64,000 nucleotides of DNA, taken from Acidobacteriota bacterium (GTDB lineage Bacteria; Acidobacteriota; JAAYUB01). Positions 28,809 to 33,838 of this stretch are shown piece after piece (the stretch's first letter is position 1; each line of letters begins with the position of its first letter). The translations under genes and the position numbers were made by a program. The notes beneath the pieces were generated by a model that had not been told where the DNA came from, made no database searches, and saw only the letters and a list, made by a program, of their open reading frames with translations. Location of the stretch: contig JAKQOW010000095.1 of NCBI GenBank assembly GCA_029565065.1, forward strand, positions 5,616-69,615, given 5' to 3'.

Positions 28809-29423
28809 TCAGGCGCCCGCCTCCCCCACCACCAGATACAGATCGTCCGCCTCGCGCCAGATGACCGGGCCGAGGCGGGCGTTCGCCAGCATGCGGTTCA
28901 CAACCTCCCGTGGCGGGATCATGTCGTGGGCCACCGCCGACCCCACGCCGGCGTGGAAGGCGTTGAGCTTCTCCCGGCCGGTGAGATGGCAGATGACCAG
29001 CCGCCCCGCCGGCCGCAGCAAACGGGCCAGGGCAGCCAACGCCTCGGCCTTGCGGCTCAGGTGGGGGAAACAATTGTAGAGCAGCACGGCGTCGAAGGCG
29101 CCCGGACTGAAGCTCGGCCGGTGGGCATCGGCAAGCACCCAGCCGGCGCCGGCCGTTGCCTCCCGGCCGCGGGCCTGGCGCAGCATGGGCAGCGAGAAGT
29201 CCATGCCCACCACGCGGCCGCCCGGTCCCACGAGGTCCATGATCACCGACGTGATCCGCCCGGTGCCGCAGCCGGGCTCCAGGATGCGCTGCCCGGGGCG
29301 CAGGCCGGCTTCCGCCAGCACCGTCCGCAGGCGGGGCAACTCGCGGGAATCCTGGTAGTCGGCGTCCCAGCCGTCGGCATGACGGTCGAAGAAGGCCCGT
29401 TTGTCGGTGTGCGGATCAGTCAT
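28809..29423 (-). CDS. Class I SAM-dependent methyltransferase
   Basis: ILEPGCGTG, GMDFSLPML, ADAH, FDAVLLYNCFPH, LLRPAGRLVI. Confidence 0.9.
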   Translation of the reverse strand: MTDPHTDKRAFFDRHADGWDADYQDSRELPRLRTVLAEAGLRPGQRILEPGCGTGRITSVIMDLVGPGGRVVGMDFSLPMLRQARGREATAGAGWVLADAHRPSFSPGAFDAVLLYNCFPHLSRKAEALAALARLLRPAGRLVICHLTGREKLNAFHAGVGSAVAHDMIPPREVVNRMLANARLGPVIWREADDLYLVVGEAGA

Positions 29424-30237
29424 AGCGGGTCGCCTCCCGGCGCCGGAAAATCAGGACGACAAAGAACGCGGCGCAGAGCACGACGATCACCATGGCGCCC
29501 GTGCCCACGTTCCACCAGGCCGACAGCAGCACGCCCGCGAGGCAGCCGCCCGCGCCCAGCGCGGCGCTGGCGACGAAGAGCGCCGGCAGGCTGCGGGCGA
29601 ACAGCCGTGCGGTGGCTGCCGGCGCGATGAGCACCGCGAAGATCAGCAGGCCGCCCAGCGCCTCCAGGTAGACCGCTACCGACAGGCCCACCACCGTCAG
29701 CACCAGGCCCATCAGAAACGCGTCCCGGAGCCCCGCCGCCGCGGCCAGCTTCCGGCTCACCAGCAGCGCCCGCAGGCCGGGGTAGAACCCGACGATGAGC
29801 GCCGCGACGAGGGCCGTGGCCCCCGCCATCCAGACCAGCCGGTCCGGCGGCAGGAGCAGGATGCTGCCCCACAGGAGGGCCAGCAGGCGGTTGATCTCAC
29901 CGCCCGCCAGGGACATCCCCATGAAGGTCAGGCCGAGCATGGTGGAGAAGACGATGCCCACCGCCAGCTCGTGCTCCTGACGGGACTTCTCGATGATGGG
30001 ACCGATGAGCCACACGGCCAGACAGGCACCGGCGAAGGCGCCGCTCATCGGCGACACCCCCAGCAGGTGCCCGGCCACCGCCCCCGCCATGGCGCCGTGG
30101 GCCGCCGCCACGCCGATGAACGGGATGCGCAGGCCCACGATGAGCACGCCCAGCAGGCCGCAGCCGACACCGCCGGCCAGGGCCGCCCACAGGGCCCGCT
30201 GCATCAGCGGGAGGTGCAGCCAGTCGAGCAGGTTCAT
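29416..30237 (-). CDS. Metal ABC transporter permease (ZnuB/MntB family)
   Basis: LMQRALWAALAGG, HGAMAG, LLWGSILL, GGLLIFAVLIAPAATARL. Confidence 0.9.
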   Translation of the reverse strand: MNLLDWLHLPLMQRALWAALAGGVGCGLLGVLIVGLRIPFIGVAAAHGAMAGAVAGHLLGVSPMSGAFAGACLAVWLIGPIIEKSRQEHELAVGIVFSTMLGLTFMGMSLAGGEINRLLALLWGSILLLPPDRLVWMAGATALVAALIVGFYPGLRALLVSRKLAAAAGLRDAFLMGLVLTVVGLSVAVYLEALGGLLIFAVLIAPAATARLFARSLPALFVASAALGAGGCLAGVLLSAWWNVGTGAMVIVVLCAAFFVVLIFRRREATRYD

Positions 30238-30956
30238 GACGCCCCCTCCGGCGGCACGCCGGCGGCCGCCAGCGGTCGATCGGCCGACAGCCGACCGTCC
30301 TCCAGGTGCAGCAGGCGGGTGGCCGCTTCCGGCGGTTCGTCGGCCTGGTGGCTGACGAGGATCACCGCCAGGCCCTGCTCCCGGTTCACCCGCGCCAGCA
30401 GCCGGGCGATCTGCTCCCGGGCGGCGCGGTCCAGGTGGTTCATCGGCTCATCCATGAGGATGAGCTGCGGTTCCTGGAGCAGGATCCGGGCGATGGCCAC
30501 CTTCTGCAGCTCGCCGCCCGACAGCGCCGCCAGGGGCCGGTCCAGGAGCGGGATGATACCGGTGTAGCCGGCGATTTCCGCCAGGCGGGCGGCGCGTTCG
30601 TGCCGGCTGCCGCGCCGCGTCCCCCAGCCGCCGAACTGGGCCAGCGCGGCGAAATCGCCCGCCCGGATTGGGATGCGCGTGTCGAACCAGGCCTGCTGCG
30701 GCAGGTAGCCGATCCGGCGCCGCAGCGCCGGGCGGTTCGACCAGAGCATGCGCTGCCCAGCGACGCAGACCTGCCCGGCGGTGGGCGTCGCGAAGCCGGT
30801 GATTGTCTCGAACAGCGTGGTCTTGCCGGCGCCGTTGGGCCCACGCAGCAGGATGAATTCGCGGGGCGCCACCCGCAGGTTGACGTCCTGGAGGAGCCGG
30901 CGGCCGCCTCGCTCCACGCTCACACCGGTCAGTTCAACGAGCGGCGTGGCGGACAT
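30234..30956 (-). CDS. Metal ABC transporter ATPase
   Basis: GPNGAGKTT, IGYLPQQ, LSGGELQKV, LMDEP, VSH. Confidence 0.92.
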   Translation of the reverse strand: MSATPLVELTGVSVERGGRRLLQDVNLRVAPREFILLRGPNGAGKTTLFETITGFATPTAGQVCVAGQRMLWSNRPALRRRIGYLPQQAWFDTRIPIRAGDFAALAQFGGWGTRRGSRHERAARLAEIAGYTGIIPLLDRPLAALSGGELQKVAIARILLQEPQLILMDEPMNHLDRAAREQIARLLARVNREQGLAVILVSHQADEPPEAATRLLHLEDGRLSADRPLAAAGVPPEGAS

Positions 30957-31770
30957 GGCTGAGGGCTTCCCGAAGCGTGCGGGTTTGCGACTGGAAATAC
31001 GCCAGGTAATCGTAATGTCCCGCCGGGTCCGTGGGGAAATTGCTGAGCACGACGTGCGGCCGGCCCCACTGTTCCGCCAGCCGCCCGGTGATGCCCGCCT
31101 GGTCCGACTGCAGGTTGCCCACCAGCAGAGCCACGTCTCCCGGCGGCCGCCGGATCAGCTCCGGCGAGGGGTCGGCGCCGGCGAGCCAGGTGCCGCGCAC
31201 CTCGATCCCCAGGAACCGCAGGAATTCCGCTTGGCGGCTGTCGCAGACGACCCCCACCCCGCGACCCAGCCGTCGCAATTCGGCCATCGCCGTCTCGGTG
31301 TGCCGGCGCACGGTGTCATCGGCCGCCGCGTGGCGAGAGCGGATCACCGGCGCCTGTCGGGGAAACCGGCGGCTCAGGACATCGGCCGCATCGGCCAGCC
31401 CCGCCCGGTAGTTGTCGGGGATGAGCGCGGAGCCCCGGTCGGGCAGCACATCCAGCGCTCCCGGCAGGGCCAGCCCGGACCAGCGGGTTCGGAGGTCCTT
31501 TTGGAAGGCGTGGGTGAGAGCCAGGTCACAACGCTGGATGGCCAGGGCGTCGGCGGGGGCCAGGTCGTAATGGCCCGGACAGGAACCGGGCGGGACGAGC
31601 AGGTACAGCTCCGTCTCCGGTCCGGCCAGGCTGTGCACCATCGCGTACAACAGGGAGGACGAGACCACCACCCCCGGCCGCGGCGGCTCCGGCGCCGGCG
31701 TGGCGAGCGACCCGCCGCAGCCGGCCGCCGCCAGCGTCAGCAGGAGGACGGCCGGCATCCCCCAGCCCAT
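30934..31770 (-). CDS. Atypical ZnuA/TroA-like substrate-binding lipoprotein
   Basis: Lipobox AAAGC; VVVSSSLLYAMVHSLAG...LVPPGSCPGHYDLAPAD; start uncertain (31770 or 31758). Confidence 0.8.
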   Translation of the reverse strand: MGWGMPAVLLLTLAAAGCGGSLATPAPEPPRPGVVVSSSLLYAMVHSLAGPETELYLLVPPGSCPGHYDLAPADALAIQRCDLALTHAFQKDLRTRWSGLALPGALDVLPDRGSALIPDNYRAGLADAADVLSRRFPRQAPVIRSRHAAADDTVRRHTETAMAELRRLGRGVGVVCDSRQAEFLRFLGIEVRGTWLAGADPSPELIRRPPGDVALLVGNLQSDQAGITGRLAEQWGRPHVVLSNFPTDPAGHYDYLAYFQSQTRTLREALSHVRHAAR

Positions 31771-31835: not shown

Positions 31836-31864
31836 TTGACCTCACCGTCGCCAACTCCTATAGT
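31836..31864 (+). promoter_or_regulatory. Sigma70 promoter TTGACC-N17-TATAGT for the TonB receptor
   Basis: Near-consensus hexamers; the -10 overlaps the palindrome. Confidence 0.75.
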
Positions 31865-31889
31865 GTTACCGATTTATTATACGTAACAC
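31863..31889. promoter_or_regulatory. Perfect palindromic operator GTGTTAC-N13-GTAACAC (NikR-type)
   Basis: 7-bp perfect inverted half-sites with AT-rich spacer; equals GTGTTA-N15-TAACAC, the form I recall for deltaproteobacterial NikR. Confidence 0.75.
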
Positions 31890-31904
31890 GGAGTGTAATG
31901 TCCA
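31876..31904 (-). promoter_or_regulatory. Sigma70 promoter TGGACA-N17-TATAAT for the ABC operon
   Basis: Minus-strand hexamers at 31899-31904 and 31876-31881. Confidence 0.75.
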
Positions 31905-33838
31905 CGTCTCCGCGAATCGCCCTGATTTTTTGCTGGGCTGCTCTGGCCGCCATCACCGGTTGGGCCGTCGAATCACCGGCGGGCCGCGAACCGGATGCGC
32001 CCGTGCCGCCGCTGCGCACCGAGATCGAGGTCCGCGCCGACGCCCCGATCGTGGAGGGCAACCACATCGCCGCCGACGGGATCACGTTTTCCCGCGTCAC
32101 GCGGACGCAGCTGGACGACCTGATGGCTCACGACATCCTCACCGGCGTGCGCCGCGTGCCCGGCATCCTCATTTCCCGCTACAACCTGGTGGGAAGCTAC
32201 GGCGGCGGCGAGGGCGGCACCCTGTTCATCCGCGGCATGGGTTCGGGCCGCCCCGGCGCGGAGATCCAGTTTCTCGTCGACGGCGTCCCCCGCGTATCCG
32301 GAGTCTGGGCCCACCCCCTCATGGACGTGCTCGCTGTGGACACCATGGCGCAGATCGACGTGGTCAAGGGCGCTTCCCCCGTTCTGTACGGCAACATGAG
32401 CTTCGGCGCGGTGGACATCCGCACCCGGCGCATGCTCCAGGACGGGCACGAGCTGGAGCTCTCCGCGGCCGGCGGCTCCTACGGCACTCTGCTCACCGCC
32501 CTGAACGGCGGCTTCCGGCAGGGCCGGTTCGACACCTACGTCTCGCTGGGATACAAGCACTCCGACGGACACCGGCCCCAGGCCGACGGCGAGCTGCAAC
32601 ACTACTTCGGCCGCCTGGGCTACGCCGTCGCCCCGGGCTGGCGGCTGGACTTGGCAGTGACCCACACGAACAACTACGCTCGCGACCCGGGCGTCGCCGG
32701 CCTGCCGCCGCCGCCCCGCGCCCAGTTCAACACCGACGACTGGCTCACGGTGGTCACGCTGGAGAACACGCTGGCCCAATGGGACGGGTACTTCCGCTTC
32801 TACAGCGACAACGGCATGATCAACTGGCAGCAGTGGAACACCGGCCGGCAGCAGAGCGAGGACAACGACACCGACTATCACAACTGGGGCTTCCGCGCCC
32901 GCCAGACGTGGCGCGGCAGCGACCGGGTGGCGCTGACGGCCGGCTTCGACTGGGACGACTACGGCGGCGACTTCACCAGCGTCATCGGCGGTGTGGCGGG
33001 CCCCACCCGGGGCGAGCGGTTTCGCAACGCTGCCCCCTATGCGCTGGCGAGCGCCGAGTTCGGCGACAGCACGAAGATCGCGCCGGTCGCCGGACTGCGC
33101 GTCAACGTCAGCGACCCGTTCGGCACATTCCTGGCCCCCCAGGCCGGTGTCAGCCTGATCCGCGGCGGCACCACGGCGCACGTCTCCCTCTCGCGGGGCT
33201 TCAACCTGCCCGGCGTGTACGCGGCCGTGTCGTACGACCAGTGGGGCCGGGGCGACGCCTGGCGCGAGCTGGAGCCGGAACGGGTGGTCCACCTGGAGGC
33301 GGGTGTATCCCGGGTGGTCAACACCTGGCTGCGCCTTGACGCCACCTGTTTCCACGACCGCGGCCGCGACGCCCTCCGCTTCGCCGCCCCGCCGCCGAGC
33401 TACGAGAACATCGCCGAGTACGAGCTCAACGGCCTGGAGACCTCGGTCACGGTCTGGCCGGCCGACGCGCATCACCTGTTCGCCGCCTACACATTCCTGG
33501 ACGCCCAGCCCCACGACACGCCCTACGCGCCGCGCCACACGATCGTCGCCGGCTGGAACTGGAAACCGCTCCGCCGGCTCGACGTCGCGGTGGACGCCCA
33601 GTACATCGGCCGCCGCTTCGCCGCCAATCCGCGCTATCCCGGCGCCCGCGTCGCCATGGACGGCTTCACCCTCTTCAACGCCCGGCTCGACCTCCACGTC
33701 ACCCCCGAGAGCTGGCGGGAGCGGGTGACACTGTTCGGGGCCGTGGAAAACCTGACGGACACCGACTACGAATATCGCCCCGGCTACCCCATGCCCGGCA
33801 TCACCCTCCTGGGCGGGCTCCGGGTGACGATCCACTGA
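31898..33838 (+). CDS. TonB-dependent outer-membrane receptor
   Basis: Signal peptide; plug IRGMGSG...LVDGVP...IDVVKGASPVLYG...GAVDI; C-terminal VENLTDTDYEYRPGYPMPG...GLRVTI; SD GGAG. Confidence 0.93.
   Translation: MSTSPRIALIFCWAALAAITGWAVESPAGREPDAPVPPLRTEIEVRADAPIVEGNHIAADGITFSRVTRTQLDDLMAHDILTGVRRVPGILISRYNLVGSYGGGEGGTLFIRGMGSGRPGAEIQFLVDGVPRVSGVWAHPLMDVLAVDTMAQIDVVKGASPVLYGNMSFGAVDIRTRRMLQDGHELELSAAGGSYGTLLTALNGGFRQGRFDTYVSLGYKHSDGHRPQADGELQHYFGRLGYAVAPGWRLDLAVTHTNNYARDPGVAGLPPPPRAQFNTDDWLTVVTLENTLAQWDGYFRFYSDNGMINWQQWNTGRQQSEDNDTDYHNWGFRARQTWRGSDRVALTAGFDWDDYGGDFTSVIGGVAGPTRGERFRNAAPYALASAEFGDSTKIAPVAGLRVNVSDPFGTFLAPQAGVSLIRGGTTAHVSLSRGFNLPGVYAAVSYDQWGRGDAWRELEPERVVHLEAGVSRVVNTWLRLDATCFHDRGRDALRFAAPPPSYENIAEYELNGLETSVTVWPADAHHLFAAYTFLDAQPHDTPYAPRHTIVAGWNWKPLRRLDVAVDAQYIGRRFAANPRYPGARVAMDGFTLFNARLDLHVTPESWRERVTLFGAVENLTDTDYEYRPGYPMPGITLLGGLRVTIH

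Follow-up and report, generated by a model that had tools for sequence, protein, structure and literature searches.

Catalogues of bacterial nickel uptake list NikABCDE, Nik/CbiMNQO, NiCoT, HupE/UreJ and UreH, and 62 nickel-using bacteria have been recorded without a recognised importer (PMC2667541). A nickel importer of the ZnuABC type, that is, an ATP-binding cassette (ABC) transporter served by a cluster A-I binding protein, is absent from two nickel-transport surveys (PMC2667541, PMC11247825). Such an importer may be encoded in the window analysed here, a stretch of 64,000 nucleotides from an Acidobacteriota bacterium (assembly GCA_029565065.1, contig JAKQOW010000095.1). The gene of interest runs on the minus strand from 31770 (ATG) to 30934 (stop) and encodes P0001, a substrate-binding lipoprotein of 278 residues with a cluster A-I fold and a Cys-Pro-Gly-His (CPGH) motif. 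No publication mentioning this motif, as CPGHFD, CPGHYD or CPGH, was found in a full-text literature search. Proteins of this family are named zinc ABC transporter substrate-binding proteins in public resources (NCBI and JGI); this annotation is probably wrong, and P0001 is most likely the nickel-capturing part of an importer class. More precisely, P0001 is regarded here, with a probability of roughly 0.6, as a lipid-anchored periplasmic protein that captures nickel for an uptake system under NikR repression.

The original prediction, made from the sequence before any search, had assigned P0001 to the ZnuA fold, and this was borne out by structure prediction and by alignment with cluster A-I proteins. 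The Pfam ZnuA model (PF01297) matched residues 34-86 only, with a score of 38 bits (cut-off 29). With 150 family sequences as input, AlphaFold2 gave a model with a predicted local distance difference test score (pLDDT) of 91.4 and a predicted template modelling score (pTM) of 0.85. In this model the long rigid linker that is the hallmark of cluster A-I is formed by helices 118-135 and 137-169, which separate two beta/alpha lobes. The top Foldseek matches of the model were all cluster A-I proteins (YfeA, AztC, Liberibacter ZnuA2, PsaA, TroA, MntC and ZnuA), with template modelling scores of 0.65-0.75 at 13-18% identity. VIA-align, run exhaustively over 48,161 chains, gave Z scores of 17-23 against 13 cluster A-I entries, the ten best superposing with a root-mean-square deviation of 2.5-2.9 Å over 233-242 residues. 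AztC, TroA, ZnuA, the CLas ZnuA2 and FpvC scored Z 20-23, and a clear gap set these entries apart from the heme, B12 and siderophore binding proteins (Z 13.5 or less). An hhalign comparison of the family with 20 canonical members of the ZnuA family, taken from related genomes, gave a probability of 99.2% over 240 columns. As modelled, P0001 is a member of the cluster A-I fold class, yet it fails to carry the ligand set that defines this class.

The register of the metal site was taken from a HMMER profile comparison with PsaA, MntC and SitA and from hhalign, and the two agreed. As had been predicted, PGSCPGHYD (residues 61-69; 31564-31590, codons checked) stands in place of the canonical Asp-Pro-His (DPH) motif, and both methods put Cys64 on the Asp of DPH, Gly66 on the ligand His and His67 one residue downstream. 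Its core, C64-P-G-H67-Y-D69 (31564..31581, minus strand), is the signature of the family and is conserved in 147-150 of 150 sequences. On the same strand, hhalign placed Gly113 (31432..31434) at the canonical second-ligand His and Arg179 (31234..31236) at the third, and hhalign together with HMMER against PsaA placed Ser243, followed by Asn244 of an N-F-P motif (31039..31044), at the fourth-ligand Asp. All four canonical ligands are thus absent from their expected positions in P0001 in the hhalign register, and no His is found in residues 105-125 or 170-186. Across the 150 family sequences, residue 179 is His in 104 and Arg in 19.

Other details of the original prediction needed adjustment. 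It had located the second and third ligand positions in SALIPDNY (114-121) and VCDSRQ (175-180), and both segments are present and free of His; the second-ligand His, however, aligns with Gly113, just ahead of SALIPDNY, and the exact match for the third is Arg179 within VCDSRQ. Pro118 of SALIPDNY corresponds to the later Pro of the canonical HxWLSP and not to the Pro of DPH. The canonical His residues are indeed gone, as claimed, but His87 had been overlooked and the loss of the fourth-ligand Asp (Ser243) had gone unmentioned. No alternative His or Glu residues making up a standard zinc or manganese site were found, His87 being non-canonical and beside a thiolate.

His87 (31510..31512, minus strand; context ALTHAFQ) lies at the C-terminal end of beta3, the strand spanning residues 83-87 in the DSSP assignment of the AlphaFold2 model, and is the candidate third ligand of the subtype linked to TonB receptors. 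It is expected near the CPGH loop because in a Rossmann-like lobe the strands beta2, beta3 and beta4 all point their C-terminal ends into the interdomain cleft, where that loop sits. The candidate ligands of P0001 would then be Cys64, His67 and His87, all of the N-terminal lobe.

Conservation within the family points to the CPGH motif as the core of the site. A word-index homology search returned only eight relatives and made the family seem tiny; a full hidden Markov model (HMM) scan of 1.84 billion representatives corrected this, with 1187 matches at E<=1e-3 and 246 clusters at E<=1e-30. In a motif-guided scan, CPGH[F/Y]D relatives were present in 401 of 185,579 species genomes, mostly of Planctomycetota, Verrucomicrobiota, Kiritimatiellia, Acidobacteriota, Gemmatimonadota, Omnitrophota and Nitrospirota, with a few in archaea. 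Conservation was counted in 150 family sequences, each 20-35% identical to P0001. Cys64 was kept in 149 of these, Pro65 in all 150, Gly66 and His67 in 147 each and Asp69 in 148; Gln90 (150), Asn244 (146), Phe245 (148) and Pro246 (148) were near-invariant as well, as were Pro118, Tyr121, Gln180, Asn219 and Asn262. A motif kept at such low overall identity is not a chance feature, and Cys64 is not part of a structural disulfide since the family has no conserved Cys partner for it. The family is not covered by any NCBIfam model; its best scores there, 20-44 bits, fall far short of the cut-offs (350-500). A selenocysteine in place of the Cys was considered after TGA codons had been flagged inside matches in four genomes, and was rejected: in the translated loci L088 (CPGHYD) and L091 (CPGHFE) the stop lies outside the motif, and no selenocysteine codon was found at the Cys position in the CPGH-family loci checked, these two of the flagged four among them.

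Two forms of the family were distinguished. Form A, which dominates Planctomycetota, has Cys116 in the beta4 loop and Phe87 and retains the canonical third ligand as His179, giving a candidate Cys2His2 set of Cys64, His67, Cys116 and His179. Form B, which includes P0001 and is the form coupled to TonB receptors, has no Cys116, carries Arg, Met, Phe, Tyr or Gln at position 179 and has His87. His87 was present in 29 of the 35 loci without His179 and Cys116 compared with 2 of the 49 loci with both, a covariation which suggests that His87 replaces His179 in the TonB-linked subtype. In a rooted FastTree phylogeny the forms largely follow clades, with form A nested within a form-B grade.

It was also observed that in loci of the Planctomycetes-Verrucomicrobia-Chlamydiae group two conserved genes without a Pfam match stand in place of the TonB receptor gene (38 of the 65 loci with enough upstream DNA; for example L009:6235-7272 and L009:7313-7957). 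P0159 represents a secreted protein of about 340 residues with a dockerin-like C-terminus, and P0160 a protein of about 214 residues whose N-terminus carries a prepilin-type methylation motif. Such a pair directly follows a NikR-type box in L061 and L063.

The metal is indicated by the regulatory region. A perfect NikR-type operator, GTGTTAC-N13-GTAACAC, occupies 31863..31889 in the 127-nt intergenic region between P0001 and a divergent receptor gene; no other exact copy occurs in the 4.4-Mb genome. Two sigma-70-like promoters that face each other overlap with it, and its sequence is identical to the NikR consensus published for nikMNQO operons of delta-proteobacteria (PMC545781). The relaxed pattern GTRTTAC-N13/14-GTAAYAC, with at most one mismatch, was found in 10 of 80 orthologous loci compared with 0-1 in reversed or shuffled controls, and in nine of the ten the box precedes the leading gene of the cluster by 9-152 nt. 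In L011 and L013 this leading gene is nikR, and the order is box, nikR, receptor, binding protein, ATPase, permease and methyltransferase. In a further genome (G043) nikR heads the same six-gene string, and in G218 it abuts the methyltransferase gene. The nikR gene lies inside the cluster in L011, L013 and L092 and adjoins it in L093; a NikR profile placed it no more than 8 kb away in 17 of the 80 loci, form-A loci included. An early view that NikR control was restricted to the TonB-linked subtype was dropped, nikR being found beside Planctomycetota-type operons as well.

The linkage extends to whole genomes. When 400 genomes were sampled evenly across the phylum, nine (four genera) were found to contain the family, and all nine have nikR against a background of 88 of the 400 genomes (22%), or 52 of 227 genera; five of five planctomycete carriers of the family have nikR too. 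One nikR is present in the genome of the window. The signature H-x10-H-x-H-x5-C is kept in 24 of the 25 NikRs examined, including that of the window genome. It matches the arrangement of His76, His87, His89 and Cys95, which form the high-affinity nickel site in Escherichia coli NikR. The idea that the linked NikRs are zinc sensors was rejected on the grounds of this signature. The operon and the receptor are therefore predicted to be under NikR control. Control by a riboswitch was rejected as well, since the operon gave no Rfam match, either in the window or in nine orthologous loci; a single cobalamin riboswitch in L061 lies 6 kb off on the opposite strand. The core of the original prediction, a Cys/His site for a nickel-type metal working with the adjacent TonB receptor rather than a site for free zinc or manganese, thus gains support from the conservation of Cys64 and His67, the ligand loss and the NikR link. 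Its cobalt option found no specific support, and no B12 riboswitch was found.

Several further observations concern these control regions. In a Brocadiaceae locus (L019:3436-4323), tonB comes first after a NikR-type box and is followed by the receptor and binding protein genes, so that the energy-transducing TonB appears to be nickel-regulated there too. In the sister genome of the same genus (G017; L095:7176-7263) the perfect NikR box is kept and a weaker box with two mismatches lies 61 nt away, which suggests two operator sites in that intergenic region. The operons of Planctomycetota type carry a conserved asymmetric 28-nt element, GTAGCACGA-N11-TTATGCGC, often in two tandem copies 29 nt apart (L009:6152-6208, L025:6312-6368 and about 35 more among L007-L082). 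It overlaps a TTGACA/-10 promoter just 5' of the first gene and gave 53 matches, all on the operon strand, compared with one in the control. A divergent nikR lies beside the element in L023, L065, L074, L077 and L082, and beside a second copy in L020. This planctomycete element may be a NikR operator unlike the published palindrome.

The gene of P0001 is the first of a four-gene operon with tight overlaps on the minus strand. Its product begins with a signal peptide (31717..31770; MGWGMPAVLLLTLAAAGC) ending in a lipobox-like AAGC, and it is considered a lipoprotein because of this ending and the conservation of Cys18 in relatives (Gly17 in 121 and Cys18 in 115 of the 150 sequences). The start of the ABC ATPase gene (30234..30956; ABC_tran, 106 bits; AztA-like) overlaps the 3' end of the P0001 gene by 23 nt. 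It is followed by an ABC-3 permease of the ZnuB/PsaC type (29416..30237; PF00950, 154.5 bits), which scored about 23 bits with the FecCD model, under the cut-off of 26.5. Among 59 permeases of CPGH-type operons, His47, Trp123 and Arg162 are invariant, and Asn190 is usual, with Tyr in the permease of the window. The final gene, overlapping that of the permease by 8 nt, encodes a class I S-adenosylmethionine (SAM)-dependent methyltransferase (28809..29423; Methyltransf_11 and related models). On the plus strand, the divergent gene (31898..33838; in-frame ATG after GGAG) encodes P0169, a TonB-dependent receptor of 646 residues with a Plug domain (56 bits) and weak full-length similarity to TonB-B12 and siderophore receptor models.

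The order binding protein-ATPase-permease was kept in 76 of the 80 orthologous loci, and the methyltransferase gene occupied the same operon position in 28. The 28 methyltransferase orthologues keep GxGxG, D75, D111, P120-H121 and N154; His121 and His157 are invariant and His146 is kept in 25, and no Cys is conserved among them. The three His residues could bind a metal or a chelator.

A demand for nickel is suggested by the genome, which has HypA and two matches to the large subunit of [NiFe]-hydrogenase. NiCoT, CbiM/NikM, HupE/UreJ and urease were not found in this genome (93.5% complete), in which a NikA-type system was not searched for.

In the proposed mechanism, the system would consist of an outer-membrane TonB-dependent receptor, a ZnuABC-type importer (P0001, the ATPase and the ABC-3 permease) and a cytoplasmic methyltransferase. 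When nickel is scarce, NikR would leave the operator at 31863-31889 and both divergent promoters would fire. Nickel would then be carried by the receptor across the outer membrane to P0001 and passed on to the permease, transport presumably being inward. P0001 would keep the two-lobe A-I fold with a rebuilt metal site, in which the metal would be held by the Cys64 thiolate and the His67 imidazole on the C-P-G-H loop that follows beta2; the N-terminal lobe would contribute a third ligand, His87, from the end of beta3. In the C-terminal lobe, Asp177, Arg179 and Asn244 may close over the site or touch a co-ligand.

Certain points weigh against this proposal. NikR control of the operon is itself a prediction, and the case for Cys64, His67 and His87 being neighbours is purely topological. 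With no more than two or three ligands from the protein, the proposed site is sparsely furnished for a bare ion to be bound tightly, and an Arg at a former ligand position is odd in a cation site. The covariation of His87 with His179 is mostly bound to clades and would reflect few independent events. A conserved methyltransferase is unexplained within a nickel importer, and a NikA-type importer is possible in the genome of the window.

In an alternative reading, P0001 would recognise not the ion but a nickel chelate delivered by the TonB receptor, which could be a nickelophore or something as simple as Ni-(His)2. Cys64, His67 and His87 would then bind to the metal, Arg179 would form a salt bridge with a carboxylate of the chelator, and the methyltransferase would act on the chelator in the cytoplasm. 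The subtype that has lost Cys116 and the His179 of the C-terminal lobe is the one linked to TonB receptors, all of its candidate ligands are in one lobe, and the methyltransferase with its invariant His cluster and no Cys accompanies it in 28 loci. Position 179 in this subtype is Arg, Met, Phe, Tyr or Gln and is Arg in P0001; NikA and NiuB, two known nickel binding proteins, bind Ni-(L-His)2 with the aid of an Arg. However, residue 179 is not consistently Arg within the subtype, and no metallophore biosynthesis genes were recognised beside the operon in the Pfam annotation. The partner permease is of the ABC-3 type (154 bits, with FecCD below its cut-off), the type that moves bare ions, and the fold of P0001 is the compact A-I one (Z 23 compared with 10-13 for chelate, heme and B12 binders). 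A chelate-binding P0001 is accordingly judged rather unlikely, and bare or lightly complexed Ni(II) the more likely cargo, but not by much.

A very improbable reading is that the system handles another thiophilic metal (Co, Cu(I) or Cd), or a metalloid which the methyltransferase later methylates. It would suit the free Cys ligand, the Met found at positions 116 and 179 in several members and the weakly BtuB-like receptor, and the methyltransferase is weakly similar to ArsM-type and corrinoid-associated methyltransferases. An ArsM-like metalloid methyltransferase was nevertheless rejected, since ArsM-type enzymes need conserved cysteines and none is conserved in the 28 orthologues. Searches of the window's operon and of nine orthologous ones also turned up no cobalamin riboswitch, and the linkage to NikR is consistent across phyla. 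Least probable of all is an ordinary zinc or manganese importer as in the public annotation: the Pfam ZnuA match, the weak NCBIfam AztC and MntC matches, the zinc names given by NCBI and JGI and the lack of any other canonical ZnuA match at E<=1e-30 in this genus (three genomes, G000, G017 and G101; one was found in 12 of 30 related genomes) would favour it, but none of the four canonical ligands is kept, the NCBIfam scores fall far under their cut-offs, the operator fits the NikR consensus and not a Zur box, and the linked NikRs retain the full nickel-site signature.

With P0001 preferred as the nickel-capturing subunit, a wider proposal may be put forward tentatively. The CPGH proteins might constitute an undescribed class of nickel ABC importers on a ZnuABC chassis, with a periplasmic thiolate, Cys64, as a primary ligand. 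One form, in Planctomycetota and relatives, would use the Cys2His2 site (C64, H67, C116 and H179) and would be accompanied by a pilin-like and a secreted protein without a TonB receptor. In the TonB-linked form, represented by P0001, the role of His179 would have moved to His87, a nickel chelate would be held from one lobe, and the His-rich SAM methyltransferase would process the chelator after import.

Should P0001 prove to be a nickel-capturing protein, part of the gap in recognised importers would be filled for Planctomycetota (including anammox bacteria), Verrucomicrobiota, Acidobacteriota, Gemmatimonadota, Omnitrophota and others, and the zinc names of the family would be corrected in about 400 species, as counted by the motif scan. 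The family would also be a natural example of ligand shifts altering metal selectivity on the rigid cluster A-I scaffold. A thiolate ligand is unusual for a periplasmic binding protein and fits the mainly anoxic habitats of the carriers, as inferred from the sources of their metagenome-assembled genomes.

Compared with the described cluster A-I proteins (ZnuA of E. coli and Synechocystis, PsaA, TroA, AztC, YfeA and MntC), P0001 is alike in the two-lobe fold and the long rigid linker helix, in its partners (an ABC-3 permease and a ZnuC-type ATPase) and in its lipoprotein anchoring. It differs in sequence (13-18% identity) and in all four ligands, DPH being changed to CPGH, His to Gly113, His to Arg179 and Asp to Ser243. 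New invariant residues have arisen in its family (Q90, Y121, Q180, N219, N244 and N262), and NikR control is predicted in place of Zur, MntR or Fur. From the zinc-specific ZnuA and AztC it is set apart by a score of 22.6 bits with the AztC equivalog model, against a cut-off of 350; the ZnuA equivalog was not listed.

FpvC, a component of the pyoverdine-iron pathway with His ligands of the canonical type, has been crystallised with nickel. The Pseudomonas aeruginosa structure (PDB 6r3z, with Ni2+) is of the same A-I class as P0001 (VIA-align Z 20.9, 16% identity), but FpvC has neither the Cys-Pro-Gly-His motif nor NikR control. A conserved Cys or selenocysteine also occurs in the ABC binding proteins SaoB and SaoX, proposed to bind soft metals (bioRxiv 10.1101/2022.07.06.499078). 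A relation to these proteins, suspected from a match of the methyltransferase to a DVU_1556-type model, was rejected because they belong to a different class of binding proteins, the nitrate/sulfonate/taurine type with a MetI-like permease.

The fold class of P0001 is shared at a distance by Helicobacter pylori CeuE (4ino), which gave Z 10.0 compared with Z 23 for the A-I proteins. With the nickel importers already described, namely NikABCDE, NikZ, CntA, NiuBDE, Nik(MN)QO/NikKMLQO, NiCoT and HupE/UreJ, the proposed system shares the job of high-affinity uptake. Its likeness to NikA, NikZ and NiuB is a functional one, nickel capture under NikR, in another protein class. NikA, NikZ and CntA are cluster C proteins, and NiuB/CeuE is of the chelate-binding A-II type that works with FecCD-type permeases; the remaining importers, such as NiCoT and HupE/UreJ, are not ABC binding-protein systems. 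NikR controls nikABCDE and the predicted nikMNQO regulons (PMC545781), which matches the control predicted for P0001, and FrpB4/FecA3 of H. pylori provide a precedent for TonB receptors under NikR (cited in PMC11247825).

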